In this document: piece after piece, positions 2,893-34,674 of the stretch
How the letters are laid out: every line of letters starts with the position of its first letter
How positions within the stretch are numbered: the first letter of the stretch is position 1
DNA from: a virus
Strand: one strand, 5' to 3'
Virus record (IMG/VR): IMGVR_UViG_3300045988_162434
Span: 64,001 to 122,443 of that record
Length of the DNA: 58,443 bases
Position numbers and translations under genes: made by a program
Notes under the pieces: generated by a model
What the model was told of the DNA's origin: nothing
Seen by the model: only the letters and a program-made list of their open reading frames with translations
The model's database searches: none

Positions 2893-3217
2893 TTGCAATG
2901 TAACAAAAGAAGCAGTTAAAAATACAATAACCAGATTAACAAATCAGATTTATAAAGTTCTTCCATTGAAAGAAGAAAACAAAGATTGGAAAACTTCTTT
3001 AAATAATACAATCTTTGAATTAGTAGGTTTAGATAGTTTATTATCTGATTATTTTAGTTTTTTTAAAATTTTATGCAAATTAGAAAGTCTATTGTTTTTA
3101 GATAATGAGGATGATGAACAAGAATTTTTTTATTTTAGGAAAACTATTTTTGAATGCTTGAGTTTAATGAATGAGGTGAAGCGATGTCTGGATTCGATAG
3201 AATGTCCACAAGAATAA
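2876..3217 (+). CDS. hypothetical small structural-module protein (113 aa)
   Basis: ORF overlapping its upstream neighbour by 17 nt, RBS GGAGGAA 7 nt upstream. Confidence 0.6.
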   Translation: MVIKYNCNVTKEAVKNTITRLTNQIYKVLPLKEENKDWKTSLNNTIFELVGLDSLLSDYFSFFKILCKLESLLFLDNEDDEQEFFYFRKTIFECLSLMNEVKRCLDSIECPQE

Positions 3218-4086
3218 ACTATTTAGGTGGCAAATCAGCAGATTGTCGCTTAAATAAAGGTAAATTAAAATCTATGCTTTCTTCTCAGCAAAATTCATAT
3301 CAAGCTGAATGGATAACATTAAATAACAATAAAAAATGGCGTTGTTTAATAAATCCAGATAAGCTGAAAGAAGATTATGATCAAAAAGAAATTTCTATTG
3401 AATTTGAAGCTGGATTACAAGAGGGCGATACTTTTTATTGGGATAGAACTAAAACATATTGGATTACATATTTACAAGATTATGCAGAAGAAGCTTATTT
3501 TAGAGCAGCAATTAGAAGATGTAATTATTCAATAGATATAAATAAAAACAAGTATTGGGTTTATTTGCGGGGTCCGGTTGAGACTTCCCTAATCTGGAGA
3601 CAGAAGCATTCAATCGAAAGCAATGACTTAAATTATACTTTAATTGTTTATATTACTAAAAACGAAGAAACAGAAGCGTTCTTTAAAAGATTTCAAATTG
3701 TAAAATTTGATAATCATAATTGGAGAGTTGCCGCAGTCGATAGATATAGTCAAAGAGGTATTATTGAAGTCTATTTAGATGAATACTTTGACAACGTTGA
3801 TGAAGACAATATGATTATTCCTGAGATTCAAGAATTTGGACGAAGAGATCCTCATATCGACGGCCCGCAAATTGTAGAAGTTTTTGGAGAAGAAATTGAA
3901 TATTCTATAAAAAATGCTAGTAATGGTAAATTTGTAGTTAATTCTAATAAGGTTAAAATTGTAAAATCAGATGAAAATACGTTAGTGTTAAATATATTAA
4001 CAGGAAAAGCTGATTCTTTTATAATTTCTTATATTAGAGAGGGAGAAGAAGATATTACATTAAAAGTAAATATTGATTCTTTCTAG
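3184..4086 (+). CDS. hypothetical structural protein (300 aa)
   Basis: Long ORF in an operon context. Start uncertain: GAGGTGA lies only 4 nt before the ATG. Confidence 0.7.
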   Translation: MSGFDRMSTRINYLGGKSADCRLNKGKLKSMLSSQQNSYQAEWITLNNNKKWRCLINPDKLKEDYDQKEISIEFEAGLQEGDTFYWDRTKTYWITYLQDYAEEAYFRAAIRRCNYSIDINKNKYWVYLRGPVETSLIWRQKHSIESNDLNYTLIVYITKNEETEAFFKRFQIVKFDNHNWRVAAVDRYSQRGIIEVYLDEYFDNVDEDNMIIPEIQEFGRRDPHIDGPQIVEVFGEEIEYSIKNASNGKFVVNSNKVKIVKSDENTLVLNILTGKADSFIISYIREGEEDITLKVNIDSF

Positions 4087-4104
4087 AGTTAAAGGAGATT
4101 TTTA

Positions 4105-4713
4105 ATGAGAGCTGGAAAAATGAATGGATACAATGGAGAAATAAAATCCACCTTTCTCTCTTGTGAAAAAGATACAGAAGCAATATTAAAAAAGTTATTT
4201 GTAGATAGTAAACCCTATAGTGATATGCTTAAAAGATTACTTATTATAAATACTAAAGATTGTCTTTTTGATATGACAAATCCTGAGTATAATAAGAGAA
4301 TAAAAGAAAAAAGTGTAGCTAAGATGTATGATGAAGGATATATTAGATTAAATCCTAATCTTGATATGGGCGAAAATGAACAAGTAAAAAGCTATATTTT
4401 AATAACTTTTGATAATTTTGCTCCTTGTGAAAGAAATCCTCATTTTAGGGATTGTACTGTTATGATAGATATAATCTGTCATACTCAATACTGGGATGTG
4501 GGAAACTATAGGCAGCGACCGCTTAAAATTGCTGGCTATATTGATGGTATTTTAAATGAATGTAAGCTTTCGGGTTTGGGAACACTAAACTTTATGGGAT
4601 GTAATGAAATCGTCATTTCAGAAGAATTATCTGGCTATTGTTTAACATATGCTGCAGTTCATGGTTCTGATGATTTTATTCCAGAGGCGGGTGACCCTGA
4701 TAATGGTGAATAA
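4105..4713 (+). CDS. hypothetical structural protein (202 aa)
   Basis: ORF with RBS AAAGGAGA. Confidence 0.7.
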   Translation: MRAGKMNGYNGEIKSTFLSCEKDTEAILKKLFVDSKPYSDMLKRLLIINTKDCLFDMTNPEYNKRIKEKSVAKMYDEGYIRLNPNLDMGENEQVKSYILITFDNFAPCERNPHFRDCTVMIDIICHTQYWDVGNYRQRPLKIAGYIDGILNECKLSGLGTLNFMGCNEIVISEELSGYCLTYAAVHGSDDFIPEAGDPDNGE

Positions 4714-5452
4714 TTTATTACTTTTATCGGGGTTGGATATCCCCTTTTTAGATGCTCAGGTCAATATTCATCAACCCACTATTAAAGAAATTTCACTTAT
4801 TAGTGAAGAAAGTTTTCATTCAGGTTGTTCATTTTTAAATTTTTCAAAAGATTTGTTACCTGAAGAGGACAAAATAGGTTTAGAGAATAAGAGTGATTTT
4901 GAAATATTTATGTCAATGATGAATACAAAAGAAAAAGCACAGTTTAAAACAGATACTCTATTGTTGTTAACTTTACTTTTTCCAAATCATTCAATAAAAT
5001 TTGAACCTAATAGGATTATTTTAACAAATTTAAGTTTAGAAAATAATCCAAAATCTTTTATTCATTTAGGCAATTATGATGCTTTTAAAAGTATTATAAT
5101 AGATATGTTCTGTTTAACACCACCCGGCAAAGGAGAGGGAGAATATAATCCAGCTGATGGCTTTGCCGCGAAGATTGCTGCAAAATTAAAAGCAAGACAC
5201 GATAAGCTTAAAAAACAGCATAAGGAAAAAGATGCTCCAAAAGAGATATTTAATCTTTATATTTCAATTCTTGCTGTTGGTGAGCAAAAAGACATTAACA
5301 GTTTAATGAATTATACTGTATATCAGCTTACTGATGAATTCACTCGTTATCAAAAGAAACTTGCTTATGATATGCATATGCAAGCTATAATGGCTGGTGC
5401 AACAGATTTAGATGAAGTAGAGTATTGGATGGAAGATATCCATTCCAAATAA
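4703..5452 (+). CDS. hypothetical protein, about 250 aa (start revised from the ORF-track ATG at 4649)
   Basis: ATG at 4703 overlaps the upstream stop (ATGGTGAATAA) with GGTGA 8 nt upstream. The earlier ATGs at 4649, 4661 and 4670 lie deep inside the upstream gene with no SD. Confidence 0.55.
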   Translation: MVNNLLLLSGLDIPFLDAQVNIHQPTIKEISLISEESFHSGCSFLNFSKDLLPEEDKIGLENKSDFEIFMSMMNTKEKAQFKTDTLLLLTLLFPNHSIKFEPNRIILTNLSLENNPKSFIHLGNYDAFKSIIIDMFCLTPPGKGEGEYNPADGFAAKIAAKLKARHDKLKKQHKEKDAPKEIFNLYISILAVGEQKDINSLMNYTVYQLTDEFTRYQKKLAYDMHMQAIMAGATDLDEVEYWMEDIHSK

Positions 5453-5475
5453 TTAAAATTAAGGAGGAAATAGAC

Positions 5476-6498
5476 ATGAAGTTCGGTGTCCGCGAGATTT
5501 GCGATGTAGTATTTAAGGCTACAGCGAACAATCAAAAGATTGGTCAAAAGACATTCAAAAAGGGTCAGCCTTGTTTCATGATTGATACAGCTAAGACTTC
5601 TAGTCTTGAGCAGGCTACAACAACAGTTTATGCTCAAGGTGGTAAAGGTAATAACCGTCTGATCGCTTGGGAAGGTGAAAAGACAATGACCTTCACAGTT
5701 GAAGATGCACTTATCTCTCCTATGGGATTAGCAGTACTTTCAGGTGCAGGACTTATTAACCCAGATAAAGAGAACGTAAGCCACGTTCACATCACAGTAA
5801 ATAAGATGACAAGTAGCACTGGTGTAGCAGAAGTTGATCTTGACGATTTAAGAGAAGAGACTGGATTAAATGCAGCAACATCTTTTATCGTTTGTGGTGT
5901 TATTCCAGCTTATGCTACTGTTCTTGATGGATCAGGTGCAGGTATTGACTGGATTAGCGATGTAGCTGTTTCTGGTACAAAGGCTGTTGAAGATGCAACT
6001 GAGGGGCATGAAGATTATAAGGTAGACAAAGACACTGTAGCTACGTTTACTCTTAAAGATGCTACTGGTCAAACCGTTAATAGCAAGACTGTACAGTTAG
6101 ACTTCTACTTAATTATGAGTACAGGTGTAACAGAAGTAGAAATTAAGCCAGAAGACTTTGGTGGTTACTTCTATGTTGAAGCTCAGACCCTGTTTAGACG
6201 TGAAGATGATGGTCAGGATATGGCAGCTGAAATTATTTTACCTCGTGTAAAGGTTCAGTCTGGATTCACATTCTCAATGGCTTCATCTGGTGACCCTTCA
6301 ACATTTACATTTACTATGGATGCTTTCCCTGGTTATACACAGTTCGATTCTACAAAGAAAGTAATGTGTGTAATGCAGGTTATTGGTACAGATAATCTTG
6401 GAAGTGATTCTGATTCTGTTCATGCTACACAGCATGGTACATTAACAAAGGATACTCCTGATTATACTGCAGCAGCAAACGAAGTTGTAGGACCATAA
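5476..6498 (+). CDS. putative major tail protein (340 aa)
   Basis: Start revised to ATG 5476 (RBS AAGGAGGAAA, 6-nt spacer) inside the track ORF 5425..6498. Abundant-protein codon usage (about 40% GC). Strong terminator downstream. Position ahead of the tape measure gene. Confidence 0.5.
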   Translation: MKFGVREICDVVFKATANNQKIGQKTFKKGQPCFMIDTAKTSSLEQATTTVYAQGGKGNNRLIAWEGEKTMTFTVEDALISPMGLAVLSGAGLINPDKENVSHVHITVNKMTSSTGVAEVDLDDLREETGLNAATSFIVCGVIPAYATVLDGSGAGIDWISDVAVSGTKAVEDATEGHEDYKVDKDTVATFTLKDATGQTVNSKTVQLDFYLIMSTGVTEVEIKPEDFGGYFYVEAQTLFRREDDGQDMAAEIILPRVKVQSGFTFSMASSGDPSTFTFTMDAFPGYTQFDSTKKVMCVMQVIGTDNLGSDSDSVHATQHGTLTKDTPDYTAAANEVVGP

Positions 6499-6512
6499 TA
6501 TAAAGAAGATGC

Positions 6513-6541
6513 GGGAGCGCGGTGCGCTCCCAATTTTTTTA
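6513..6541 (+). terminator. rho-independent terminator GGGAGCGC-GGT-GCGCTCCC plus T7 run
   Basis: Perfect 8-bp GC stem followed by AATTTTTTT. Confidence 0.75.
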
Positions 6542-6565
6542 TATCTAAAAGGAAGTGAATAAGCT

Positions 6566-8020
6566 ATGGCAAAAATTCAAAGATCTGGTTATTATATACA
6601 CCATTCTATAAAAGGCTATAATAAAAATGGTGTGTTTTTAGATAGCTCGTATGAGTATAATGCATGGCACAGTCGCCACACTGAAATATTAAATAATTTA
6701 CAACTAACAAAACTTAATGGACAACAAAATAATTTTGCTAAAACACTAGAACAATTTTTAAATGCTGCAAGAGATAGCCAAAAAGATAAAATTGATGCTT
6801 TTAAATTTCCAGAGGATGAAAAACAAAAAATGTATAATTTAATCAGTGAAAAAGTTAATGAAAAATATAATAATGCAAGGTTTGATGATAACGGTAATTT
6901 AATTTCTGGAAGTCGTGACTCTAGCATAACTGTTTCTCAATATAACAACAAGCCAGGGTATTTAGATCTAGATGCAATTAAAAAAAGATTAAATAAAATG
7001 AATGATTTAGCAAAAAATTCTCAAGATTTTCTTGATTCATTACAAAAAAAGAATAAAAATATAGACACCTTAAATGTAAAATTAAAAGAATTAAATAATA
7101 AAATTGCAAATATGACTAAAGATAGTGGCGTTGTTCCTATTAGTAGAAAATATGGTACTTTTGGTTTTATAACCCAATTTAATGATGTAATTAGAGAATA
7201 TTATGGTCAAGTTCCAAAAGCTTTAATTGAAGGCTTACATTTTGAGTATTTTGTAGAAGAAACAGTAAAAAATTTTATAGATCAACTTAATACTGAATTA
7301 AAAAAGAATACAGGAATTCAAGTTACAGGTGCAATAAATGCAGGTGGTACTTCAAGAAATATTGATGAACATTTAGTTTTTAGCGCACAAGGAAATGATA
7401 AAATTACTGTTGATACTAAATATAATATGCGTTCAAAAGTAGACTCTTATTTAACAATTACAGTTAATGGAAAACCAAAATATCTTGGCTTATCAGAAAA
7501 ATCTGAAACCTTTGAACAATATGGTTCTTGGATTACATTAGTTTCAGGAACGCCTCTTTATAGATTACTTATGGATACAGATAAAAATTATCAAATGCAT
7601 TTTGTGAATATTGCGGCATTAGGTCCAAAAGCAAAGAAGGCAAAAGCCTTAGTAAATGATGCTGGAATCATTATGTTAGCAAGAGCAATAAAAGGATATG
7701 ACATAAATAAAAAATTAGGTGATTTCTTAATTGTTAATGACAAAACAACTGGACAAATAAAAGTTAAATTAGTTGATGAATTATTACAAGATATAATTCA
7801 AAAAGTTGAACAAAATGGTAATTTTAGAAATGCAGTTACAATTAAAGTTAATGGTAAAAATATTCTTATCAATAGTGGCATGAGATTTTTAGGAAAAGAA
7901 AATAGAAAAATAGGAAGAAAAGGTAATGATATAGAACTTGCTTATCAAAGAAGTAAAAAAGTTATTTCAGGTTATTTAGCATCAAGAGCAGTAGTAAGTC
8001 TGCGATTTTTAATGAACTAA
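6566..8020 (+). CDS. unknown K/N-rich protein (484 aa) in an extremely AT-rich (about 20-25% GC) gene: N-terminal coiled coil plus C-terminal globular domain. Candidate horizontally acquired accessory gene.
   Basis: Sharp drop in GC relative to the flanking genes (about 40%). Sits between a terminator and a consensus promoter. No recognisable motif. Confidence 0.75.
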   Translation: MAKIQRSGYYIHHSIKGYNKNGVFLDSSYEYNAWHSRHTEILNNLQLTKLNGQQNNFAKTLEQFLNAARDSQKDKIDAFKFPEDEKQKMYNLISEKVNEKYNNARFDDNGNLISGSRDSSITVSQYNNKPGYLDLDAIKKRLNKMNDLAKNSQDFLDSLQKKNKNIDTLNVKLKELNNKIANMTKDSGVVPISRKYGTFGFITQFNDVIREYYGQVPKALIEGLHFEYFVEETVKNFIDQLNTELKKNTGIQVTGAINAGGTSRNIDEHLVFSAQGNDKITVDTKYNMRSKVDSYLTITVNGKPKYLGLSEKSETFEQYGSWITLVSGTPLYRLLMDTDKNYQMHFVNIAALGPKAKKAKALVNDAGIIMLARAIKGYDINKKLGDFLIVNDKTTGQIKVKLVDELLQDIIQKVEQNGNFRNAVTIKVNGKNILINSGMRFLGKENRKIGRKGNDIELAYQRSKKVISGYLASRAVVSLRFLMN

Positions 8021-8023
8021 AAC

Positions 8024-8052
8024 TTGACAAGACAAAATTTTTTTGCTATAAT
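8024..8052 (+). promoter_or_regulatory. consensus sigma-A promoter TTGACA-17-TGcTATAAT
   Basis: Exact -35 and -10 hexamers with 17-nt spacer and an extended -10 TG, about 35 nt upstream of the ATG at 8087. Confidence 0.7.
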
Positions 8053-8086
8053 TATTGTAGAAAGAAAAACAAAAGGAGAAAAAGGA

Positions 8087-8623
8087 ATGGCAAAAGTTAG
8101 TTTCTCTTCTTTAAAATTAAAGGTTAAAGAAGATATAGAAGAAATTTATTTTGGAGATAAAAAAGTAGAAGTAAAAACTTATATTTCTACAGAAGAATTA
8201 AATGATATGATCCAGGCGGTTGTGGAGCAAGCTACCACATCAACAATTTATAATGATTTCCTTGGAAATTGTATATTGGCAGATTATATTATTATGACGC
8301 ACACAAATCTTTCTTTTACAGACGCTCAGAAATCAGATTTGCTTAAGTTATTTGATATTCTTAAAACAAATGGCGTTATGAACGTAATACTTGATGCTAT
8401 TGGTTCAGAAGAAATGGATCGAATTCTTAAAGCTTATGAGTGGGTTGTAACAGAATATAAGAAATATACATATTCGGTCAAAGGACTCACAGACCAGATT
8501 TTGCAGTTCGCACCAAAGTCCGCGAATGATATTGCAGAACAATTAAAAGATTTTGATGTTGATAAGTATTCACAGATAATGGAGATGGCTAAAGGAACTG
8601 GCATTCAGTTTGAACGGTCATAA
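8087..8623 (+). CDS. acidic 178-aa protein in its own promoter-gene-terminator unit (moron); could alternatively be a tail assembly chaperone
   Basis: RBS AAAGGAGAAAAAGGA. ATG at 8087 lies in frame inside the track ORF starting at 8024. Flanked by the promoter at 8024 and a 14-bp-stem terminator at 8637. Confidence 0.7.
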   Translation: MAKVSFSSLKLKVKEDIEEIYFGDKKVEVKTYISTEELNDMIQAVVEQATTSTIYNDFLGNCILADYIIMTHTNLSFTDAQKSDLLKLFDILKTNGVMNVILDAIGSEEMDRILKAYEWVVTEYKKYTYSVKGLTDQILQFAPKSANDIAEQLKDFDVDKYSQIMEMAKGTGIQFERS

Positions 8624-8636
8624 TAAGTTAATTTTA

Positions 8637-8679
8637 AAGACCTTACTATTATAATTTAATAGTAAGGTCTTATTTTTTT
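8637..8679 (+). terminator. strong rho-independent terminator (14-bp stem AAGACCTTACTATT / AATAGTAAGGTCTT, T7 run)
   Basis: Perfect inverted repeat plus ATTTTTTT immediately after the stop at 8623. Confidence 0.8.
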
Positions 8680-8708
8680 GCAATTAAATAAGAAAAGGAG
8701 GAAACGGA

Positions 8709-11700
8709 ATGGCTAACACAATAGATTTTAAACTGCGGACAATAGCAGATTTAAAAGGTGTTAATGAATTAAAGCAAAGTTTAAATGAAGTTAGAAAAGA
8801 ATTTACTGTTTTTGAACATCCATTAAATATGGATACTTCAGAAATATTAAAATCCATAGATCAAATCGAACTTGCACTTGAAAAAGCTTATAATCCAAAT
8901 ATTAATACAGTTAATTTTGAAAAATTTAATAAAGTATTAAAACAAAATGGTACTGATATTCAAACAATAGGTAAAAATTTATTAAATGCAGGAACTTCAG
9001 GTCAAAAAGCTTTCTTAAATTTAACTAATACATTTACTCAGATGGGTAGTGTAGTTAAAAGAACCAATAAACTAGTCGATGAAATGGCTCAAACCATGAA
9101 AAATACTGTTAAGTGGGGATTGAGCTCTGGTTTATGGAATCAAATGCTTAGTAGCACTCAACAAGCTTATGGTTATATTAAAAATCTTGATACTGCTTTA
9201 AATGATATCAGAATTGTAACTGGGCAGTCGGCTGATCAAATGAGAGATTTCTCAAAAGACGCGAATGAAGCGGCAAAAGCACTTGCTGTTTCAACAAGAG
9301 ATTATACTGAAGGAGCTTTGATTTATTATCAACAGGGTCTTGATGATGATACGGTTAAAGCTTTAACTGATATTACTGCAAAGACAGCTAATGTAACAGG
9401 TCAGTCTATGGCGGAAGTGTCTGAGCAACTCACAGCTGTATGGAATGGTTACAATGTAGCAAACGAAGCTGCAGAAAAGGGCTTTGGTATATATGAAGAA
9501 TATGTAGATAAGTTGGCGGCAGTAGGCGCGGCAACCGCATCAGATCTGGAAGAGCTGGCTACAGCTATGTCTAAAGTAGCGTCATCTGCATCCATGATGG
9601 GTGTTAATATCGACCAGTTATCTGCTCAAGTTGCTACTATTGTTTCTGTAACAAGACAAGCACCAGAATCTGTTGGTACTGCTCTTAAAACAATTTATGC
9701 TCGTATGGGCGACTTACAAGTTGATGGCGTTGATGAATTTGGTACTACTCTTGGTGAAGTATCCGGTACCCTTGAGTCTGTTGGTATTAGAGTTCTGGAT
9801 GAAACAACAGGCAACTTAAGAGAAATGGGTACTGTAATGGAAGAGGTTGCTGAGAAATGGCAAGGATGGACGGAAGCTCAGCGTCAAGCTATTGCAGTAG
9901 CTATGGCAGGTAAAAGACAGTATAATAATTTAACTGCATTATTTAATAACTGGAATATGTATCAAGATACTTTAGCTGTATCTCAAAATGCTGCTGGTAC
10001 GTTACAAGAACAGCAAGATATTGCTTTGGAGTCTTTAAATAAAAAGCTTGAAATATTAAGAGCAACTGCTGAAACAATTTATCAAGATTTATTTGATACA
10101 GAAGGTATTAAAGACTTAACTGAAGATGCTACTAAGTTATTAGAAGTTGTAGATAATTTTGTTAAAACAGCAGGTGGTTTAAAGGGTATACTGTCTTTTG
10201 TTGCTCCTTTAATGTTGAAGACTTTTAGTGGGAAAATTAGTGAAAGTATTCTTAATATTGCAAATAATATTAAAGATACAAGAACTAATTTAGAAGCATT
10301 AAAAAATTCTATGCCTGCTTTAGATCAATTTAATGAAATTGCTCAAAATGCATATATTCAAAATCCAGAAAGCATGGGCGGAAAAGCTGTTGCAGATGCT
10401 ACTGCTCAATTAAAAGCTAATAATCAATATTTAATTGAAAATAATAAATACTTAACAGCAGAAGACGAAAAGCAAATAAATTTATTAAATAAAAAAATTG
10501 TTGCTCAAGCTGAAATGACTGTTAAATATGGTGAACAAGTTGAAGCTATTACTAAACAAAAAAATAATTTAATAGGTTTATTAGATATAGATACATCATT
10601 AGAAGCTTCTACTGAAAGAAGATCTAAAGATTTAGAAAAAATAAACACCTTTTTAAAAATAGCTAATACAATAGAGGGTGAAAATCTCGGCACTTCAATG
10701 ACCACTGATGCTTTTGGAAATAATCAGATAGAAGATGCAATGAGTAATTTAATAAAAACTGATGAACGAGTATTACCAAGTATTAAAGAAATTATGAAAT
10801 CAGGAGATGCTTTTAAAGATAAGTGGTCTCAAATTTCAACTATAATTAAAGAAGTTGATGATAAAATTACCACTATTGATTTAAAAGCTTTAAAAGAAGA
10901 TTTTAAAGAATTAGATATTCAAGCTAAAGAATCAGCTATTGATGCTAAAATTTCTAAAATAAAAGAAGATACAGATTTTATATCTAATATTCAAGAATTA
11001 GATTTACCTCAAGCAGAGGTTGATAATTTCTTTAATAATTTAGCAGAAAGAGCTAAAGAAGCAGTACGGCAAGGAAAAGCTCTTGATGATGTACTAGAAA
11101 ATGTTTTTAAAGAAGCAAGAACACAAGCTGGAAACTTAGCTGGTCTTGAACAAATGCAAGGGCAAATTCAAAAGACTGAAAAAGGATTGATTTCTTTTCG
11201 AGAAGAATTGGTTAAAGCTTTTAATCAAAAAACTACAATCCAACAAATTGGACAGGTTGTAGGATCTCTTGGTCAATTAGCAATGGCAATAAATCAGATT
11301 AGAAATCTAGGAAATATTTTTTCAAATGATGATTTAACTTTAACAGAAAAAGTAGAACAGTCTTTTATGTCTTTAGCTATGATAATTCCTTCATTAATTA
11401 GCGTTTATGAGACTTTTATTGCTGTAAAAGAATCAAATAGAATTGCAACTTTGGCTGAAACAGCAGTTGAAAAAGTAAAAAATGTGGTTTTAAGTTTATC
11501 TGCAAGAATTGAAGCAAAAGTAACAGTAGCTACAACAGCTAATACTGCTGCAACAAAATTAAATACAATAGAAAAAATTAAAAATCAAGCAGCAACACAT
11601 TCTTTAGGACTTGCTATAGGCATAGTTAGTGGAGCTATGGCTCTCGTAACCGCAGCAGTAATTGGAAGTATTGCACTTTACAAAGCTCACAAAAAAGCAG

Positions 11701-14700
11701 TTGAAGAAGATGCGAAGGCAGCAGAAAATGCAGCAAATGCAGCTCATGAAGTTACATTAGCAACGGAAGAACAAAAAGAATCTGTTAATGAATTAGTTTC
11801 TAGTTATGAATCATTAAAAGAGCAATATAAGAAAAATAACTTAGAAGCTTTTAGGCAACAAGTTTATTTACTTTGTCAGCAACACGGTATTCAGAGTGCG
11901 GCAGTGCAAGCGCTTACCGCAGATTATGAAGAGTTAGACAATATTATAAAGCAAGTTCAAACTGATAGCAATGTAGATATACAAGAAGCTACTTCTGAAG
12001 AAAAAGCAAAGCAGACTGCTTCTATTAGTGCCAATATAGTTAAAGAAGCTGGTGCTAGAATTGATAGTGTTGGTCAAGGTCAAGATACTTTAGACCTACA
12101 AGGTATGATGAGTAGAAATGATAGCGAAAAGAAATTAGCTCAAGAATTAGAGAAATTAGGTATCATTTTTACAGATAGCAATCATATTACTGTAGAAAGT
12201 TTAACTAAAGTTGCAACAGAAAATAATGCAGAATTAGTAAAAATTCTGAATGAAAATCCTTCAATGGCTTCTAAACAAATTTCAGAATTGTTAAATTCAG
12301 AAACTATTTCAACTGCTATTACGAATTGGGAAGACGCAGAGACAAAAGGAAAAACAGCAGAAAGAGAAAATTCTGCAAATGATATCTTTAATAATAAGAA
12401 TTTAGGTTCTAAAGATGCTTCTTATACAGATTATCAAAAAGGTATTTCTGCTATTGTAGAAAAAGTAAGATCAACTTATGGGTGGAAAGAGTCTTCTGAA
12501 GAAGGCTATAGCAAAGAAGAAAATGAAAAAGCAATAGAAGATGCAAGACAGTATGCCATTACATATTTGACAGCTAGAAATGATGCTTTATTACAGTATT
12601 CTTCTAAATATGAAGCATCTAGAGCGTTGATAGAAAAAGGATATGCAGAAGAAACTGTTCAAAATATAATGGCTAGTTTATCTGATTCAGATGCAAAAGC
12701 TATTCTTGATAATATTGATTTAGTTTTACCAGAAAATGCAGGGGAAAATCTTCAGAAACAAATAGATGGTTTAGGCGATTTTTCTGTACTAGCCGAGGTT
12801 AGAAGTTCTGCTACTGTTACGGGCGGAGTTCTTGAGAATTTAGAGGATGGCGAATTGACTCAAGAACAAATTGATAGTTTATTTGCTGATCAGGGTATTC
12901 AAGATTATTTTGGTACTCAAGAAGATTTTGAGAAATTAGACTCATCAGAACAAATTGCTCAATTAAAAATTTTTTATGATACAAGAATAGAAAAAGAAAA
13001 AGAGTTAACTCAAGCTATTGAAGACAGAGTTAATGCAGAGAGTAAAGCCAATAATGAATCATTGACTGCTCAAAGTCAAATTGAAGGAATGACGAGCTAT
13101 AGTTATACTGGCTATGAAAAAACTCAAGAAGGCACTATTAAAAAAGGAGAGGGGTCTTCTGTAGATTACTCTGGCACTGTTGATGAAACTTATTCAACTG
13201 CAATAGAAAATTTTGAAACATTAGAAGGCGCTCTTGGTAATATAAAAGAAGAGATAGAAAGTTTTCCTGGATTAGATTCTTTTTTAAATGTTGATGATAT
13301 TGAAAAAGCTACTTCAGCAATAGAAAAATTAAAAGAAGATGGATTTGATAGTCTAACAGATGAAGAAAAAAATGCAATAGATATTGTTTCAGAAGTAATA
13401 GGTGTCAATAAAGATCAAATTAAAACATGGAAAGACGCTATTGATCAAGGAGAAGATTTAACTAATGTTTCAAATGGTTTAAGCAAAGCGCAAAATGATT
13501 TAAACAATTCTACTGAAGACAATGTTGATCAAGTAGAGGTTTGGACTGCTGTACATGAAAAAGCCAAAGAAGAAATGAGTGATATCACAGGAGAATTAAG
13601 TAGCATTCAAGGTGCATATAATTCTCTTAATAGCATAATGGATTCATATAATGAAAATGGATTCTTAACTATTGATAATCTTAATACTCTTCTAAATATG
13701 GATGATCAGTATTTAGCTGCTTTACAGATTCAAAATGGACAAATGTCTATGAATCAAAGTCAATTAGAAACATTAGCAAATGCACAATTAGATTTAGCAG
13801 AAGTTAAAGCTGTTGATGAAGCTATGTCTCAATTAGCAAGATTGGCTAATGATGATTTGGCTTTAGCAGAAGAATTAACTGGAAATGCAGCTACTTCCAG
13901 CGCGCAAAAGATGAGTGCTGCACAAACAGCTGTATATAATTTAGCTATGCAAATGCAAAGTGCTACAGTTGATGCAGCTAATTTAGCTAATCAATTAGCT
14001 GAAATTCCGGGATTAGATGGTATCTTTAAGCATAAAGATGCAGCTAAAGTTGTTATGCAAAGTTTATCTACTAAACTTGCTGCTATTGGCAATGTTAGAG
14101 CAAATCTTGGTAAGAGTATGTCAGCAGGCGTATCTAAAGGTGGAGGCGGAGGAGGTTCTTCTTCTAAAAAAGAAGAAGAATTTACTGACGATAAAGTAGA
14201 TAGATATTGGTCTGTTAATAAAGCTCTTGAAGCTATCAATGATGAACTTGATAAACTTGAAGATAAGCAAAGCACAATGTCTGGAAAACAGCTTATTGAA
14301 AGTTTACAAGAAGAGAATAAATTATTAGATCAACAGATTGATAAACAAAAAGAAAAACAGAAACTTCAAATTCAAGAAGCTCAAGAAGTACAAGGCAGAC
14401 TTAAATCTTTTGGAGTTACATTTAAAGATACTGGTGAGATCACTAATTATGAAGCAGCATATCAAGCTCAAATAAATGCTTATAATGCAGCTGTTAGCGC
14501 ATATAATGCAGGCTCTTTAGATGAAGCTGGTATGGATATAGCCAAACAAAAGTATGAAGATTTTAAGAAACAAATCGAAAGATATGATACTTTATTATAT
14601 GATGAAATGAAAGATGTCGCTGATGCGATTACAGAAGAAGAAAAGAAACAAAGAGAAAATACTTTAGCTATATTTGAAGAAGATTATAAAATTAAACTTG

Positions 14701-17318
14701 ATTTTTCTGAAGCTGAAAGAGATATGCAAGATTTCTTGGCGGAAATGGAAGAAGATTTCACTAAGGTATATGAAGATCTTGGTAAAAAGAGCAAAAACAT
14801 AGTAGCTTCATTTAGTACATACCAAGGTGACAATGGTACGATTGCCGCGGATCTGGCTGCTATAGGAGTAGTTGAGAGAGAAATTATGAATCTGCATACT
14901 ACGGGTTATTCTGGTATGTTTGAAACAATTTCTCAGGCTCAGGACAGACTTAAAGAACTTCAAAGTGATTTGATGGATCATGCTAAAGACATGAAAGATT
15001 TATTCCAAGATGCTTGGGATGCTTATATGGATGGTATTGATCAAGCTGCAGATAAGTTTGAAGACTTAATGGATGAATTTGATAGAATAAATGACAATCT
15101 TGAATATCAAGCTGAACTTATAGAGTTAATCTATGGAGAAGAAGCATATGATATGATGGATAAATTATATTCTGCTCAAATCAATAATAGTGGCGTGCAG
15201 ATTGAGTCTTTAAGACAACAGAAGGCGTTCTGGACAGAACAAGCGGAAGTTGCGAAACAATCTTATGGAGAAGAAAGTGAAGCTTATCAAGAAGCATATG
15301 AAAAGATGCGTGATTGTGAACAAGACTTAAATGACGCAGTACTTGATAGAATAAATCTTATTAAAGACCAATATCAAAACACTATTTCTTCTACTATTGA
15401 TGCTCTTGAGAAAAAAATAACTGGTGGAACAACACTTGACTATATGCAAGATCAATGGGATAGATTAAAAGAATCCGCAGACTTGTACATGGATGCAACA
15501 GAAAAAGCTTATAATACAGAAACTTTTAAAGCTAATGTCGATCAAGCTATTACAGATACCAAGAGCGTAAAAGCTAAACAGAAATTATTAGAGTTCCAAG
15601 AAAAGGAGCTTAAAGCTTTAAGAGAAAAGAAACAATTAACTCAATATGATATTGATGCAGCAAATGCTAGATTTGATATTCTTCAAAAAGAAATTGCTTT
15701 AGAGGATGCTCAAAATAGTAAGAATACAATGAAGGTTACTAGAAATCAAGAAGGTAACTGGACTTATCAATATGTTGCAGATGAAGACGACGTTGCTAAT
15801 AAGCGTCAAGCTTTATTAGATTCTTATAAAGAACTTTATGAGTTATCTAAGACAGCATATCAATCTAATATTGAAAACTTATTAAAATTAGATCAAGAAT
15901 ATTTATCTAAGAAGAAAGAGTATCTTGAAAAATATGGCGCGGACAGTCAAGAAATGGCAGATCTGGATAAGTGGTATCAAGAGATATCGATGGGGTATGC
16001 TAATGAGGCGGCGACCGCGAAATCTGGATTGCAAGAAGCTCAATTAGGTTTGACTCTTGAGATTTATAAGCAAGACGAAGAAGCTTATGCATCTATGACA
16101 TCAGAGCAACAGAGATTAGTTAAAGAAGCTACAGATAATAATATTAGTGATTTTAATAGTGTATATGATGCTGTTAGAGATAATATGAATGGTATTGTAG
16201 ATAGTATTGAATCTTCTCTTGTTGAAGGAAGAGGTATCTGGGATACGGCTGCAGATCAAATGATTGATAAATGGGCTGGCGATGATGGTTCTAGTGTGAA
16301 AGCTATGGTTACAGATGCGAATGATAAGTTAATTGAAGCAACTCAAAAATATGAAGAACAAGTTTCAGATACTGCTGATAAAGCTGGACAGGATTTTGGA
16401 CCAGATGGTATATCAGGCGCGATTAGAGGAGCAGAAGATGAGACAGATAATTTGAAGAATAAGACTGCTGAACTTGCTTCAGATAGTAGTTCTCAATTAG
16501 AAAATTTAAGAAATAGTGTTGATCAAGTTAAAACTGCTTGGGAAGGTGTGGTTCAATCTATCCAAGATGCTATTAACAATATTCAACAGTATTTATCTCT
16601 GATGCAAGCTGCGGCAACTGCAAGTCAAACTACTTTTAGTGGTGCAACAAATTATGGAAACTATTCTGCTACTAATAGTACTTCTTCTAATAATGGTAGC
16701 GGCGGTAATCTATCTAGTGGTTCTGGACTTAGCAGAGGTCCTTATAAACTACAATCAATATCAATCGCTCCAGGTGGCGTACCTAAGATGGGTATTCCTC
16801 AAATTGGAATATCAATGGAAATTCCTTCTAATTTAAGAAATAAGAATATGATTAACAAAAAAGATAGAGACTTATTTATTGCAGCTTTTAATAGGAAGTA
16901 TCCTCAATATAATGTTTACAAGACTGGTGGTTACACAGGAAACTGGCCTATGTCTCAAGGAGATGGTCTGGATAGTGATAATGGTAGACTTGGTATTTTA
17001 CATCAAAAAGAACTTGTATTAAATGCTTCTGACACAGAAAATATTTTAGATGCAGTAAAAATTGTTAGAAGTATGCCAAATATTATTTCTTCAATTCAAA
17101 ATGCTATTTCTGATGTAGTTGGAGAGAGACTTTCTAATATGACTAATGAAATTAGTCAAGGTAAAGTTGTTTCAACAACAGCAGGTAGCAACAAAGAAGA
17201 AAATAATGTTTATAACATTGTTGCAGAGTTTCCTAATGCTAACAGTGCGGCAGAAATTGAACAAGCTTTACTTAATCTTAAAAATATTGTAGCACAAAAG
17301 AACGGAATTAGAAAATAA
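8709..17318 (+). CDS. tail tape measure protein, 2869 aa (TP901-type TMP core near the N-terminus, long coiled coils, internal hydrophobic segment, Gly/Ser linker)
   Basis: N-terminal region (DIRIVTGQSADQMRDF...GALIYYQQGL) resembles the phage TMP core. TM-like LGLAIGIVSGAMALVTAAVIGSIALY. GGGGGGSSSKKEEE linker. Compositionally mosaic (GC-rich core, AT-rich extensions). Confidence 0.8.
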   Translation: MANTIDFKLRTIADLKGVNELKQSLNEVRKEFTVFEHPLNMDTSEILKSIDQIELALEKAYNPNINTVNFEKFNKVLKQNGTDIQTIGKNLLNAGTSGQKAFLNLTNTFTQMGSVVKRTNKLVDEMAQTMKNTVKWGLSSGLWNQMLSSTQQAYGYIKNLDTALNDIRIVTGQSADQMRDFSKDANEAAKALAVSTRDYTEGALIYYQQGLDDDTVKALTDITAKTANVTGQSMAEVSEQLTAVWNGYNVANEAAEKGFGIYEEYVDKLAAVGAATASDLEELATAMSKVASSASMMGVNIDQLSAQVATIVSVTRQAPESVGTALKTIYARMGDLQVDGVDEFGTTLGEVSGTLESVGIRVLDETTGNLREMGTVMEEVAEKWQGWTEAQRQAIAVAMAGKRQYNNLTALFNNWNMYQDTLAVSQNAAGTLQEQQDIALESLNKKLEILRATAETIYQDLFDTEGIKDLTEDATKLLEVVDNFVKTAGGLKGILSFVAPLMLKTFSGKISESILNIANNIKDTRTNLEALKNSMPALDQFNEIAQNAYIQNPESMGGKAVADATAQLKANNQYLIENNKYLTAEDEKQINLLNKKIVAQAEMTVKYGEQVEAITKQKNNLIGLLDIDTSLEASTERRSKDLEKINTFLKIANTIEGENLGTSMTTDAFGNNQIEDAMSNLIKTDERVLPSIKEIMKSGDAFKDKWSQISTIIKEVDDKITTIDLKALKEDFKELDIQAKESAIDAKISKIKEDTDFISNIQELDLPQAEVDNFFNNLAERAKEAVRQGKALDDVLENVFKEARTQAGNLAGLEQMQGQIQKTEKGLISFREELVKAFNQKTTIQQIGQVVGSLGQLAMAINQIRNLGNIFSNDDLTLTEKVEQSFMSLAMIIPSLISVYETFIAVKESNRIATLAETAVEKVKNVVLSLSARIEAKVTVATTANTAATKLNTIEKIKNQAATHSLGLAIGIVSGAMALVTAAVIGSIALYKAHKKAVEEDAKAAENAANAAHEVTLATEEQKESVNELVSSYESLKEQYKKNNLEAFRQQVYLLCQQHGIQSAAVQALTADYEELDNIIKQVQTDSNVDIQEATSEEKAKQTASISANIVKEAGARIDSVGQGQDTLDLQGMMSRNDSEKKLAQELEKLGIIFTDSNHITVESLTKVATENNAELVKILNENPSMASKQISELLNSETISTAITNWEDAETKGKTAERENSANDIFNNKNLGSKDASYTDYQKGISAIVEKVRSTYGWKESSEEGYSKEENEKAIEDARQYAITYLTARNDALLQYSSKYEASRALIEKGYAEETVQNIMASLSDSDAKAILDNIDLVLPENAGENLQKQIDGLGDFSVLAEVRSSATVTGGVLENLEDGELTQEQIDSLFADQGIQDYFGTQEDFEKLDSSEQIAQLKIFYDTRIEKEKELTQAIEDRVNAESKANNESLTAQSQIEGMTSYSYTGYEKTQEGTIKKGEGSSVDYSGTVDETYSTAIENFETLEGALGNIKEEIESFPGLDSFLNVDDIEKATSAIEKLKEDGFDSLTDEEKNAIDIVSEVIGVNKDQIKTWKDAIDQGEDLTNVSNGLSKAQNDLNNSTEDNVDQVEVWTAVHEKAKEEMSDITGELSSIQGAYNSLNSIMDSYNENGFLTIDNLNTLLNMDDQYLAALQIQNGQMSMNQSQLETLANAQLDLAEVKAVDEAMSQLARLANDDLALAEELTGNAATSSAQKMSAAQTAVYNLAMQMQSATVDAANLANQLAEIPGLDGIFKHKDAAKVVMQSLSTKLAAIGNVRANLGKSMSAGVSKGGGGGGSSSKKEEEFTDDKVDRYWSVNKALEAINDELDKLEDKQSTMSGKQLIESLQEENKLLDQQIDKQKEKQKLQIQEAQEVQGRLKSFGVTFKDTGEITNYEAAYQAQINAYNAAVSAYNAGSLDEAGMDIAKQKYEDFKKQIERYDTLLYDEMKDVADAITEEEKKQRENTLAIFEEDYKIKLDFSEAERDMQDFLAEMEEDFTKVYEDLGKKSKNIVASFSTYQGDNGTIAADLAAIGVVEREIMNLHTTGYSGMFETISQAQDRLKELQSDLMDHAKDMKDLFQDAWDAYMDGIDQAADKFEDLMDEFDRINDNLEYQAELIELIYGEEAYDMMDKLYSAQINNSGVQIESLRQQKAFWTEQAEVAKQSYGEESEAYQEAYEKMRDCEQDLNDAVLDRINLIKDQYQNTISSTIDALEKKITGGTTLDYMQDQWDRLKESADLYMDATEKAYNTETFKANVDQAITDTKSVKAKQKLLEFQEKELKALREKKQLTQYDIDAANARFDILQKEIALEDAQNSKNTMKVTRNQEGNWTYQYVADEDDVANKRQALLDSYKELYELSKTAYQSNIENLLKLDQEYLSKKKEYLEKYGADSQEMADLDKWYQEISMGYANEAATAKSGLQEAQLGLTLEIYKQDEEAYASMTSEQQRLVKEATDNNISDFNSVYDAVRDNMNGIVDSIESSLVEGRGIWDTAADQMIDKWAGDDGSSVKAMVTDANDKLIEATQKYEEQVSDTADKAGQDFGPDGISGAIRGAEDETDNLKNKTAELASDSSSQLENLRNSVDQVKTAWEGVVQSIQDAINNIQQYLSLMQAAATASQTTFSGATNYGNYSATNSTSSNNGSGGNLSSGSGLSRGPYKLQSISIAPGGVPKMGIPQIGISMEIPSNLRNKNMINKKDRDLFIAAFNRKYPQYNVYKTGGYTGNWPMSQGDGLDSDNGRLGILHQKELVLNASDTENILDAVKIVRSMPNIISSIQNAISDVVGERLSNMTNEISQGKVVSTTAGSNKEENNVYNIVAEFPNANSAAEIEQALLNLKNIVAQKNGIRK

Positions 17319-17328
17319 CAGAAACTAT

Positions 17329-17359
17329 GCGGAGAGGACTTGACCTCTCCGCTATTTTT
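17329..17359 (+). terminator. rho-independent terminator GCGGAGAGG-ACTTGA-CCTCTCCGC plus TATTTTT
   Basis: Perfect 9-bp GC stem directly after the TMP stop. Its position is the reason the downstream ORF's ATG at 17327 is rejected as the start. Confidence 0.7.
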
Positions 17360-17431
17360 GGTTATAATAGAATAAGAATGAGATTTGATTTTTCATATTC
17401 TAATAAAGAAGAGAAAAAGGAGGAAAGAGTA

Positions 17432-20400
17432 TTGGCAACAGACTACACTAAGTTTCAAGTTGATTCTACAGTAAAAGAGAATTTTACTAAAGCAGCTTCC
17501 AATACTTCATTGAATAAGGGAGCAGACTATATCTCTAATTCAATTTATGATGCTGTAGCTTCAGTATCAGAAAACGCGGCGTCCGCAGTTCAAAGTGATG
17601 TCTCCTATGAAATGGAAGTCATGGAGATAGTGGATCAAGGAACTGCGACTTATAGGGTAAAATATTTAGAGAATGATAAATTGCAAGCGCATGCAAGTAC
17701 ACCTAGCTATTCAGTTGGTGACCATGTATTAGTATTAGTACCAAGAGGAGATTTTGATAATCCTCTTGTTATTTTAAATTCTGTAACGCCTTCTGTTACA
17801 GTAGTTGGAGAAGACAAAACAACAGCAGAAACATTAAAAAGAATTGAAGTAAGTCAAAATCTTTTTAACAATTATAATTTAATTAAATTTGCATCTTATC
17901 AAGATGAGATTATAGATATAAATGATATTGTTCCATATAATTTATCTGATTTATTAAAAGGATACTTTGATAGTGGATATAATATTTTAAAGTTAAATAT
18001 GAATGTTAAAACTTCTATTGCAAAAGAGCAAAGAATTTCTGGCTCTTATGGAATTAAAGTTGAGATTCCAATCCGCAGAAAGAATGCAGATGGAATTTTA
18101 AAAGATGACATTCAAGAATTTTATTTAGATTCTAAGGTTTTTAATGGTAATCCATATGAATTAACAAATTGGTCTAATCAAACTAATTATTTGGTTCTTA
18201 ATTTTGGAGACGAAATTGTTTTCGATAAAAAGAGAAGCATTAAAGTTACTGCTTTTGTTGATGGATTTCCACAAGATCCAGCTAAAACAGATAAAAATGT
18301 TTGGGCTGATATTATATTAAAAGATATTCAATTAACTGTTTGTGAGGATATTGAGACAGTTGAAGGTGGATATAAGGTTGTATTAACAGCAGAAAATGGA
18401 CCTTTCTTTGCTAATCAAGATGTTTCTTCTATTGAAGAAAAGAAAATCAATTTAAAAGTATTTTTAAATGGACTTGAAACTTCTTATGCTAAAATGCCTA
18501 TTTATTGGTTTATTGAAGATCCAACAGTAAATGAAACAAGTAAATATTATCATCGTTCTGCAGGTGTGAATTGGAGATGTTTAAATTCTAGAACAGAGGT
18601 TTTAGGTGAAGCACAAAATGATAGTTCTTTTGTTTTTAATACATCCGCGGGTTCGGTGACGATCTCAAACCAAGATGTCAAACACAAATCTAAAATTAGA
18701 TGTTATGTTGGTACTAATGAAGGTCAATTATGGGTTTATGGAGAGCTAACTATAAGTAATTTATATTCTTTAATTAAAGAAGTTAATTTATATGCAGATA
18801 AAGAAAACAATACTTATGTTGAAAACGTAGGTATTGTAACTTTAACTTGTGAAGTAAATTATCCTAATTTATATAGTAATGTAGTTCGTGATGAAGAGTT
18901 AAATTACGTATGGGAGCAAATTGATCAGCAAGGTCGAATCATTAGTCAAGACGATTTTTATAATATTGTAGCTTTAAATGATAAGAATATTACTGATGGG
19001 ATCTATACCACTAAGATTAGTTTTCCGGTAAGTTCATTAACATCAGATATGAATATTTTTAAGGTTTATGTCTATGCTAATAAAAAACAAGCATCTGGTT
19101 CAATTATTGCTTATCCTATTGAAACAAAACAAATTAGCATAAGAACAAAAGAAGGACAAGACTTTTTAGTTGTTTTAGATAATGCTAATATAAATTATAA
19201 TTATGATGCAGATGGCGATGCACCAGATAGTGATAATTATGATGGTTTGAGTTTACAGAAATTAGAGATTAAGCCTGTTGAGTTTAGTATTATAAGCGCG
19301 GCTACCGGTGAAGAGATCTCTAAGGCTGAATATGATAGAGTCAGTTGGGTTTGGAAAGTTCCAATCAATAGTTTATTAAAACCTAATTTAGTTTATTTTG
19401 AAAGTGTAAATCAAGATAATACTTCTGCTATAACAAAAGACGATAATTACTATTATATACGCGGGAATGGCACTAATAGGAGTCTACAGTATAAGCTTGC
19501 TAGCCGCTATAATGCGAAGTCCGCGCAGAGTCTTTCAAGTTTAACTATTACTTTTGGTAATACAGTATTATATGAAGATGTCCCTATTAGATTCTCAAAA
19601 GATGGTGAGAATGGAACTAATGGTACTAAATATACTGCTTTTGTTACCTATAAAATTGGAGATACAGAATATCGTTATGGAGATATTTATATTGATGATA
19701 ATGGTAATGAGCATCCTGTAAAAATGCGTTTTGTGGCAGTAGAAGATAATGATGGTACTATTGATTGGTATATTTATGATTTAGTTAGTAATACTTTAAA
19801 AAAGTGTTATGCTTTATCGGGAAATAGTTACTCACATATTAAAGGCGATTTATATAGATTAAATATTAAAGTTTACAAGGATGGAGAAGAGATAAATACG
19901 AGTGCTTCTTCTCAAACAGGACAAGCTAGCGTATCTTGGAATATCTTTGATAGTGGAGAAAAACAAGGTTTAGGATGGAAAGAGAATAAATATTATTGTC
20001 CTTTTGCCATATCAGATAGTGATTCTAGCTCTTGTTATATTATCCCTACAAATAATGATAAAAGTAAATTAAGCCAATGGAATAATGAAAATAATATCCC
20101 TTATGTAATTGTACAAGCAAATATTTCATTATCTAATTTAAAGGCAACTGCGGATCAAAGTACAGATGATTTGAATAATATTTATAATAATGATTTGCAT
20201 ATCTATTATGATTATCCTATTGAAATTACTAGAATTAAAAAGCCACAAACAGATTTCGCTTCTGATGGAAGTTTTAAATCTTTTGTTCCATCACTCGAAG
20301 GTGGTTTCTATAATGTATTATATACATCAGCAGGAAATAATCCTCAATATGATGATACAGAAAACTTTAGATGTGAGAGCAATTTGATTGGAGTAGATAG

Positions 20401-24498: not shown

Positions 24499-24527
24499 TT
24501 GACAAAATAAAAAATTTTTGTTATACT
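24499..24527 (+). promoter_or_regulatory. sigma-A promoter TTGACA-17-TATACT
   Basis: Exact -35, 17-nt spacer, 5/6 match at -10. About 28 nt upstream of a small ORF with RBS AAAGGAGA. Confidence 0.6.
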
Positions 24528-31879: not shown

Positions 31880-31908
31880 GGGCTTTTAAATAAGCCCCAA
31901 TTTATTTT
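31879..31908 (+). terminator. rho-independent terminator GGGGCTT-TTAAAT-AAGCCCC plus T-rich tail
   Basis: 7-bp GC stem overlapping the stop codon, followed by AATTTATTTT. Confidence 0.6.
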
Positions 31909-31928
31909 GAGAAAAAGGAGGAAAAGAG

Positions 31929-33356: not shown

Positions 33357-33357
33357 A

Positions 33358-34662: not shown

Positions 34663-34674
34663 GGAGGTTAAAAC

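Follow-up and report, generated by a model that had tools for sequence, protein, structure and literature searches.

When two genes enclosed by strong transcription signals are found between the major tail protein gene and the tape measure gene of a phage, the question arises whether they are a foreign insertion or a regular part of the tail module. This is the situation at positions 6513-8679 of a stretch of 58,443 nucleotides (nt) from the IMG/VR virus record IMGVR_UViG_3300045988_162434 (positions 64,001 to 122,443 of that record), which is referred to here as the window. The region begins with a terminator (T1) behind the gene of the tail tube, the major tail protein, and continues with an open reading frame (ORF) for 484 amino acids (aa), called gene X, a promoter (P), a gene for a 178-aa protein and a second terminator (T2), after which the tape measure gene follows (Table 1). 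A sequence-only reading had interpreted gene X as a compositionally foreign gene of the abortive-infection (Abi) or defence type and the 178-aa gene as a moron, a complete unit that the host RNA polymerase would transcribe in a prophage or at an early stage of infection. The comparison with relatives leads to a different answer: it appears fairly probable that 6513-8679 is a conserved segment of the tail module with the order tube, T1, X, P, YomO, T2 and tape measure, where YomO stands for the 178-aa gene.

The claim of a foreign origin was one of base composition. Across 45 non-overlapping ORFs of the window the guanine-plus-cytosine (GC) content has a mean of 31.3% and a standard deviation (sd) of 4.3%. 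Gene X, for which about 20-25% had been claimed, measures 26.7% (12.0% at third codon positions, GC3), which makes it the sixth lowest of the 45 with a z of -1.1 (GC3 z -1.4), and the 178-aa gene is average (GC 31.0%, GC3 23.0%, z -0.08, mid-rank). The flanks had been put at roughly 40%, a value that fits the tube gene (GC 39.5%, GC3 25.7%, z +1.9, among the three highest of the 45) and neither the 178-aa gene nor the tape measure gene, which is again mid-rank (GC 32.7%, GC3 16.2%, z +0.3). The GC step before gene X is due to an unusually GC-rich tube gene and not to a foreign insert, and stretches as AT-rich as gene X are found at 3000-4500, 10200-11000, 31500-36000 and 54000-55500. Quantitatively, there is no discontinuity that would set the region apart as foreign. 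The 484-aa ORF itself was found as described, including its richness in lysine and asparagine (together 21.3% of the protein, among the highest values of the window), and these residues and the lower GC range would suit a foreign gene, but the GC content of X stays within 1.1 sd of the gene mean. What does set X apart is its charge, with an isoelectric point (pI) of 9.55 compared to 4.5-5.4 in all other structural-module proteins examined.

The 178-aa gene, whose acidic product was confirmed, belongs to a family with a fixed place in the tail module. Its protein matches phrog_30570 (E 5.7e-10) and phrog_7383 (E 6.7e-4), the family to which YomO of Bacillus phage SPbeta belongs, and its link to the Pfam family PF27287 YomO runs through the homologues P0018 and P0019, which carry this domain and are 39-43% identical to it, and not through direct scoring of the window's protein. 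It is further 28% identical to CDS0015 of Schiekvirus VRE9_2, the gene after the tube gene (E 1e-13), and shares 27% identity (E 2e-16) with the gene that precedes the tape measure gene of the faecal scaffold MT835936, while a search of the INPHARED phage collection returned one unannotated faecal scaffold as the sole match. Wherever a relative offers enough sequence, a YomO-family gene was found between its tube and tape measure genes (alignment A2), that is in the loci L003, L004, L005, L008, L014, L018 and L022 and also in Schiekvirus and SPbeta. On this comparison, the 178-aa gene is a core gene of the tail module and not a moron. Since the ribosome-binding site lies at 8073, the gene does not really start at the TTG at 8024, which forms the -35 box of P.

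The transcription signals have been conserved along with the gene. The strong terminator and the exact consensus promoter that had been proposed at T1 and P were both recovered, and T2 is a terminator as well, with a stem that was counted as 15 instead of 14 base pairs. A hairpin with a T-run equivalent to T1 is present in L003, L005, L008, L014, L018, L019, L020 and L022, with stems that differ and pairing that is kept. Promoter P precedes the YomO gene in its full form, TTGACA-17-TGnTATAAT/TATACT, in L003, L004, L005, L008, L011, L017 and L019; in L014 it reads TTGACA-17-TATAAT with the TG abutting TATAAT, and in L018, L020 and L022 the -10 is extended but the -35 is weaker. The extended -10 TGnTATAAT is found in nearly all lineages, and its counterpart in L018 reads TGATATATT. 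T2 follows the YomO gene in L003, L005, L008, L014, L018 and L022. The three signals therefore recur in about ten lineages in which YomO is only 27-62% and the tube protein 46-89% identical to those of the window. The stem of T2, AAGACCTTACTATTA...TAATAGTAAGGTCTT (8637-8671), is almost identical in L005 (about 8565-8605) and L008 (about 4998-5040), and different yet paired in L003, L014, L018 and L022. As the near-identical copies stand beside YomO proteins of only 44-62% identity, the conservation exceeds what a terminator needs, and the stem might double as a recombination linker or binding site.

Promoter P is also not a singular element of the window. It ranks best among 76 promoter-like sites in the first 18 kb, and the pattern TTGACA-N14-TGNTATAAT, with up to two mismatches, occurs 11 times in the window against 2.2 expected, a number that none of 100 shuffles reached. 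Seven of the 11 matches are intergenic and ahead of genes, at 8024, 17340 and 24499 on the plus strand and at 39787, 41244, 48294 and 57374 on the minus strand, and further terminators stand at 1689 behind the capsid gene and at 17329 behind the tape measure gene. As judged from these signals, the structural region is split into several units by terminator/promoter pairs, with the YomO unit as one of them. A perfect sigma-A promoter and a strong terminator around the 178-aa gene are what would be expected of a host-expressed unit, and such brackets around a single gene in a late operon are known from the lambdoid morons of Hendrix and colleagues. Unlike these morons, the 178-aa gene is found in all relatives with enough sequence, has an average composition and is headed by a promoter type that heads other units as well. 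The other sigma-A-type promoters with an extended -10 lie in intergenic regions at 17329-17368, 24499-24527 and, on the minus strand, at 39787-39815, 41244-41272, 48294-48322 and 57374-57402; their spacers are A/T-rich and AAAATTTT-like, and at 17329-17368 the terminator behind the tape measure gene shares bases with the -35 box of the promoter that follows.

Gene X is a resident of the same region. A word-indexed search returned only relatives of at least 90% identity, and the 90%-identity cluster of X contains 283 distinct sequences from metagenomes, whereas a full HMMER scan gave a family of at least 31 representatives (50% clustering, E up to 1e-3), mostly 455-512 aa long and 24-31% identical. 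A profile search led to 39 clusters, none with an informative name or a nuclease domain, and X has no match in Pfam, PHROGs or PADLOC and none in DNA and protein searches of INPHARED. The PADLOC models, applied with E up to 1, contained no family for X, its L008 homologue or the 178-aa protein, and Rfam gave nothing significant for 6300-8900. Within alignment A1, the N-terminal consensus is MSAIGxYIHYxxxGYxxxG and the C-terminal half has the motifs KVD, ISAKN, VSGSPL, FVNHxLN and FVVNDxxTG; Y10, Y18, N206, G223, D293, K312, H345, N348, G377, N391 and R462 are invariant, and at least 90% of the sequences have E227, K291, S310 and N313. The ratio of nonsynonymous to synonymous substitution rates (dN/dS) against L004 is 0.14, which means that X is under purifying selection. 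The order tube, X, YomO and tape measure is found in L004, L008, L014, L018 and L022, and in L020/L021 X comes after the tube gene, at the end of the contig, so that its position is constant in all seven X-carrying lineages examined for context.

The slot of X is nevertheless open to exchange. Compared with L004, protein identity is 90.6% for the tube protein, 98.4% for YomV, 91.5% for X, 93.8% for YomO and 85.1% for the N-terminal part of the tape measure protein, while L008 has values of 88.8%, 85.8%, 31.2%, 62.4% and 51.5% for the same proteins. The DNA similarity between the window and L008 covers 4000-6572 (80%) and 8020-10102 (76%) and is gone exactly between the start and stop codons of X. 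A faster pace of evolution in X was dismissed as an explanation of this drop, since X is as conserved as its neighbours in L004; the break in L008 thus points to the replacement of an allele and not to steady fast evolution. The slot holds an unrelated 343-aa gene in L005 (tube 68.1%, YomV 56.0%, YomO 43.9%, tape measure N-terminal part 43.0%) and an unrelated 403-aa gene in L003 (52.3%, 43.8%, 28.3% and 36.4%), and in profile comparison neither protein showed similarity to X, so that they are either unrelated or undetectably related to it. On the other hand, L014 has a homologue of X (28.4%) despite a tube protein of only 46.1% identity (YomO 30.5%, tape measure N-terminal part 34.5%). The view of X as an exchangeable accessory gene is partly supported by this exchange, which would also suit a foreign origin; the family, the fixed synteny and the purifying selection argue against an Abi or superinfection-exclusion gene expressed from the prophage. 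As far as sequence comparison can tell, X is a resident gene of the late module that is exchanged as a cassette and whose family is unannotated in Pfam, PHROGs and PADLOC.

The time at which X is made can be approached through relatives with a recoded genetic code. TAG is read as glutamine in L014 and L017 and TGA as tryptophan in L018, L020 and L022. In-frame TAG codons occur 8 times in the X gene of L014 and 12 times in that of L017, and in-frame TGA codons 3, 2 and 5 times in those of L018, L020 and L022; the tube and YomO genes of L014 are free of in-frame TAG codons, whereas its tape measure gene contains 39. According to PMC10879173, which cites Borges 2022, recoded stop codons are reported to be over-represented in late structural and lysis genes. 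The recoded codons therefore indicate that X depends on the late translation state in these relatives, which argues against an Abi or superinfection-exclusion gene expressed early or from the prophage. Together with the missing PADLOC match, the fixed synteny and the purifying selection, this speaks against a defence-type gene. The YomO gene, by contrast, lacks recoded codons in L014 and L018, and its translation before the code switch is possible, as an early unit would require.

Table 1. Positions of the genes, signals and protein parts discussed; coordinates are those of the window unless a relative (L number) is named.
Feature	Position	Strand	Description
Tail tube (major tail protein) gene	5476..6498	+	YomU_Tube family, 340 aa from ATG 5476
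Terminator T1 (predicted)	6513..6541	+	Hairpin 6513-6531, 8-9 bp G+C-rich stem, 3-nt loop, T7 run, dG -16.4 kcal/mol
Gene X	6566..8020	+	ORF, 484-aa basic protein, pI 9.55
X N-terminal part, aa 1-197	6566..7156	+	Conserved N-terminal motif, then variable helical coiled-coil-like region
X C-terminal part, aa 198-484	7157..8017	+	MspI/HinP1I-like PD-(D/E)XK restriction-endonuclease fold, predicted model
Candidate catalytic residues of X	E227, D293, S310, K312		D-X16-SxK pattern
Promoter P, sigma-A/sigma-70-type (predicted)	8024..8052	+	TTGACA-17-TATAAT, extended -10 (TGc), 12/12 consensus positions
Predicted transcription start of P	near 8059-8060	+	
Ribosome-binding site AAGGAG	8073..8078	+	8 nt before ATG 8087
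YomO-family gene	8087..8623	+	178 aa, pI 4.68, probable tail assembly chaperone for tape measure protein
Terminator T2 (predicted)	8637..8679	+	Hairpin 8637-8671, 15-bp stem, 5-nt loop, T7 run, dG -20.1 kcal/mol, z -7.8
Tape measure protein gene	8709..17318	+	ORF 2869 aa; orthologues carry PF10145 PhageMin_Tail
Locus in recoded relative L014	956-2404		TAG read as Gln
Locus in recoded relative L017	168-1676		TAG read as Gln
Locus in recoded relative L018	1933-3423		TGA read as Trp
Locus in recoded relative L020	6001-7359		TGA read as Trp
Locus in recoded relative L022	8001-9479		TGA read as Trp
Integrase-like gene in L012	40301-41302	-	SPbeta yomM
Integrase-like gene in L015	9807-10799		AM1 gp117
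Integrase-like gene in L016	8900-9901		Sundance gp033

A possible function of X emerges from its predicted structure. The AlphaFold2 model built from alignment A1 reached a predicted local distance difference test score (pLDDT) of 74 and a predicted template-modelling score (pTM) of 0.71, whereas a model from the single sequence was unusable (pLDDT 34). It contains an alpha/beta core like that of restriction endonucleases, and the best structural matches to the C-terminal 290 residues are MspI, HinP1I and HhaI. In Foldseek, MspI (E 7e-4) and HinP1I (3.8e-3) take the top ranks, followed by RecU, Dna2 and Holliday-junction resolvases, and the best matches in BFVD are three uncharacterised phage proteins of the same length, followed by weak matches to PD-(D/E)XK nucleases. 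The earlier statement that X has no recognisable motif is thus correct for the sequence searches of Pfam, PHROGs, PADLOC and the PDB and not for the fold of the model.

In the model, E227 lies on helix 218-248 before the sheet, D293 at the start of strand 294-300 and S310-x-K312 on the next strand, 303-314. This resembles the monomeric type IIP enzymes MspI, HinP1I and HhaI of the PD-(D/E)XK class, in which an Asp is followed by polar-x-Lys one strand later. HinP1I has the active site SD-X18-QxK and MspI uses D99/N117/K119. The pattern KVD-X16-SAK of X can likewise be set beside the active site SD-X11-EAK of HhaI (PMC7026639). Unlike these enzymes, X shows no detectable sequence similarity to them, has an additional helical N-terminal part of about 200 aa and is encoded in a phage tail module with no cognate methyltransferase in the window, not in a cellular restriction-modification locus. 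The X family is strongly basic (median pI 9.1), which suits DNA binding. From the model we infer that X is a DNA-binding endonuclease made late in infection, whose likeliest use would be in conflict with the DNA of the host or of competing phages, or in the processing of phage DNA.

The arrangement of the signals could be explained by the need for different amounts of protein. T1 would cut transcription after the very abundant tube protein, and as no promoter exists between T1 and the ribosome-binding site of X, X would presumably be made at a low level by read-through. Promoter P would then restart transcription to give high levels of YomO, which is probably a tail assembly chaperone, judging by its position and charge, and may serve as a small acidic protein coating the 2869-aa tape measure protein. 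T2 would finally lower transcription before the low-copy tape measure gene. The bracket of T1, P and T2 would in this way set protein ratios within the late module and would not be an independent unit expressed by the host.

Several observations do not sit easily with this picture. For the 178-aa protein, searches of PHROGs, Pfam and the PDB sequences gave no annotated chaperone family. The protein resembles the lambda-type G/GT chaperones in being small, acidic and encoded directly upstream of the tape measure gene, where a G/GT chaperone would be expected, and differs from them in its own promoter and terminator and in the lack of a -1 frameshift site and of a T-frame ORF downstream. The absence of an overlapping frameshifted ORF, and with it of a G/GT pair, had been stated before and was confirmed, as the longest open stretch in the other frames has 31 codons and the sole slippery heptamer is at codon 8. 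The earlier fallback suggestion of an oddly insulated chaperone comes near the reading preferred here. The function of the promoter and the terminators is predicted from the consensus match and the conservation. Moreover, the late genes of SPbeta form one operon that YonO, a polymerase of the phage itself, transcribes (PMC5467207); with a YonO-like late polymerase, sigma-A-type signals might act mainly on the host polymerase and the ratio model would be incomplete, although scans of the window ORFs found no YonO gene. As for X, the confidence of the model is moderate, residues 254-276 have a pLDDT below 50, and the equivalence of E227, D293, S310 and K312 with the active sites of MspI and HinP1I is putative. 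PDB sequence searches with the whole of X or a C-terminal profile gave only coiled-coil or chance matches and no similarity to any known nuclease, and a methyltransferase domain is absent from the window ORFs scanned, with about 60% of the genome lying outside the window. The literature searched on YomO/YomU and on the virion proteomics of Schiekvirus contained nothing usable.

Known phages show both how constant and how variable the interval between tube and tape measure genes can be. In SPbeta (Bacillus phage SPBc2) the tube protein is likewise of the YomU_Tube family, the tape measure protein is giant, and a member of the YomO family lies between the genes of the two, in the order yomU - ... 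- yomO/yomN - yomM - ... - yomI, where yomI encodes the tape measure protein. In contrast to the window, the place of X between tube gene and yomO is taken in SPbeta by youA/yomT and the PBSX-like fibre genes yomS/R/Q/P, yomN overlaps yomO and follows it, no homologue of X is annotated, and the late operon is served by a polymerase whose gene was not found here. Schiekvirus (VRE9_2, EF1) shares the gene order from portal to tape measure with matching PHROG families and has a terminator after the tube gene followed by the YomO homologue (phrog_30570), with no consensus promoter evident before the latter. It also encodes a basic 452-aa protein (phrog_29801) that aligns weakly to the X profile over the KxD, SxKN and ND motifs, a homology that is only probable (hhalign E 1.7e-4, probability 49%). 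This X-like gene comes after the YomO homologue and a 112-aa gene and directly before the tape measure gene, whereas X of the window precedes YomO.

A gene for a DNA enzyme in this interval has parallels. An integrase-like gene lies shortly upstream of the tape measure gene in SPbeta, where yomM is annotated as a site-specific integrase, in lactococcal phages of the 949 group and in Sundance, and directly beside it in AM1. The phages of the 949 group are generally known as lytic. A DNA-enzyme-like neighbour of the tape measure gene seems to recur across the SPbeta/949/Sundance/Schiekvirus-type group.

Among the other explanations for X, the one that survives best makes it a protein of tail assembly or of the virion, such as a partner of the tape measure protein or of the tail interior, in which the nuclease-like fold would be a catalytically dead scaffold. 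This is unlikely but deserves consideration, given that X lies in the tail module in every lineage that has it, that its N-terminal region is long and helical, that no methyltransferase partner was found in the window, and that the probable remote homologue of X in Schiekvirus stands directly before the tape measure gene. It is opposed by the invariance of D293 and K312 and the near-invariance of E227 and S310 at 24-31% identity, which is the pattern of a live active site, by the strongly basic character of the family in the midst of acidic virion proteins, and by T1, which implies low expression.

A bolder version of the endonuclease interpretation would combine both ideas. X may represent an unrecognised class of solitary restriction-like endonucleases in the tail module of SPbeta-type gut phages, stop-codon-recoded ones among them, that is made late, is perhaps loaded into the tail or the tape measure complex through its helical N-terminus, is delivered with the genome, and cuts host, prophage or rival DNA, a scenario that we regard as rather doubtful. 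If it were true, the exchange of cassette alleles would be a diversification of cleavage specificity, and the integrase-like genes of SPbeta, the 949 group and Sundance would be alternative "DNA-enzyme cargo" at the same position. Palindromes are strongly avoided in the window, where ATTAAT occurs 7 times against 62.5 expected, CAATTG 0 times against 18.8, GATC 102 times against 184 and GGCC 6 times against 28, and GATC is nearly missing in several relatives (1 against 34.5 expected in L003, 0 against 18.6 in L014 and 7 against 37.7 in L005). ATTAAT and CAATTG are strongly avoided in the window and in L004, and less so in L008. Palindrome avoidance could be an escape from host restriction or a self-protection against a phage nuclease, two causes that the comparison of X alleles with palindromes does not separate, as the loci beyond the window, L004 and L008 are too short.

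Less probable again is a free-standing homing endonuclease, i.e. a selfish PD-(D/E)XK gene that cuts relatives without X and spreads by repair. The nuclease fold of the model, the different genes between conserved neighbours in L003 and L005 and the sharp break of similarity at the ORF ends in L008 would all suit such an element. However, an X of 31% aa identity inside flanks of 76-80% nt identity is the reverse of a homing sweep, near-identical copies of X in diverged backgrounds were not found, and X is not sporadic but sits at one position in all seven lineages. With its 484 aa and its conserved N-terminal domain, X also differs from the small homing endonucleases that are known. The original interpretation of X as a recently acquired Abi or superinfection-exclusion gene next to a moron for the host RNA polymerase is the least probable of all, with hardly any chance of being right, as its signals, K/N content, exchangeable slot and unrecoded YomO genes are outweighed by the ordinary composition of both genes, the occurrence of the 178-aa gene, a homologue of SPbeta yomO, together with its signals in all relatives of sufficient sequence, the recoded stops, the purifying selection and fixed position of X, and the lack of PADLOC families.

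A conserved tail-module segment with an endonuclease-like gene has consequences beyond this locus. A late operon can contain a perfect host-type promoter and terminators without harbouring a moron, which calls for caution in annotation; in this module they are a conserved feature that probably sets the ratios of tube protein, chaperone and tape measure protein for a very long tail. For a family without annotation, a predicted fold, a set of candidate active-site residues and a constant position in the genome now offer a new lead. Should X prove active, a restriction-like enzyme that lacks a visible methyltransferase and is exchanged as a cassette in a tail module would be a new phage weapon or a factor of DNA processing, and the cultivable Enterococcus relatives in Schiekvirus make its activity testable.

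The remainder of the window describes the type of phage. Its GC content is 31.1%, and structural genes on the plus strand occupy positions 1-39 kb, followed by a replication block on the minus strand with NrdD, DNA polymerase III alpha, a RecJ-like protein, a primase and a DnaB-like helicase. The standard genetic code is used, with 31 TAA, 10 TAG and 5 TGA stop codons, and there are no tRNA genes. The tube protein matches phrog_2729 (E 6e-49), its L004 orthologue carries PF27173 YomU_Tube, and tblastn finds matches in Enterococcus Schiekvirus, the lactococcal 949 group, Brevibacillus Sundance, Bacillus phages and the human-gut phage Phass-1. The neighbouring genes of close relatives belong to Pfam families named after SPbeta genes (YonD_N, YonB, YomW, YomV_2nd and YomU_Tube), and the metagenomic contigs with close relatives are 112-174 kb long. 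By these similarities the source phage is most likely a large siphovirus, with a genome of about 120-150 kb and a tail of the SPbeta type. By the rule of thumb of 1.5 Å of tail length per tape measure residue, 2869 aa correspond to a tail of roughly 430 nm.

Downstream of the tape measure gene, two further ORFs stand out. A giant ORF at 17327-24496, of up to 2389 aa and without a Pfam or PHROG match, follows directly, and its true start is probably downstream of the terminator and promoter at 17329-17368. Between this gene and the distal tail genes sits a 162-aa ORF (24855-25343), about 330 nt downstream of the promoter at 24499, that encodes a hemerythrin HHE domain (E 1.3e-5) and fits the role of an accessory gene or moron better than the 178-aa gene.

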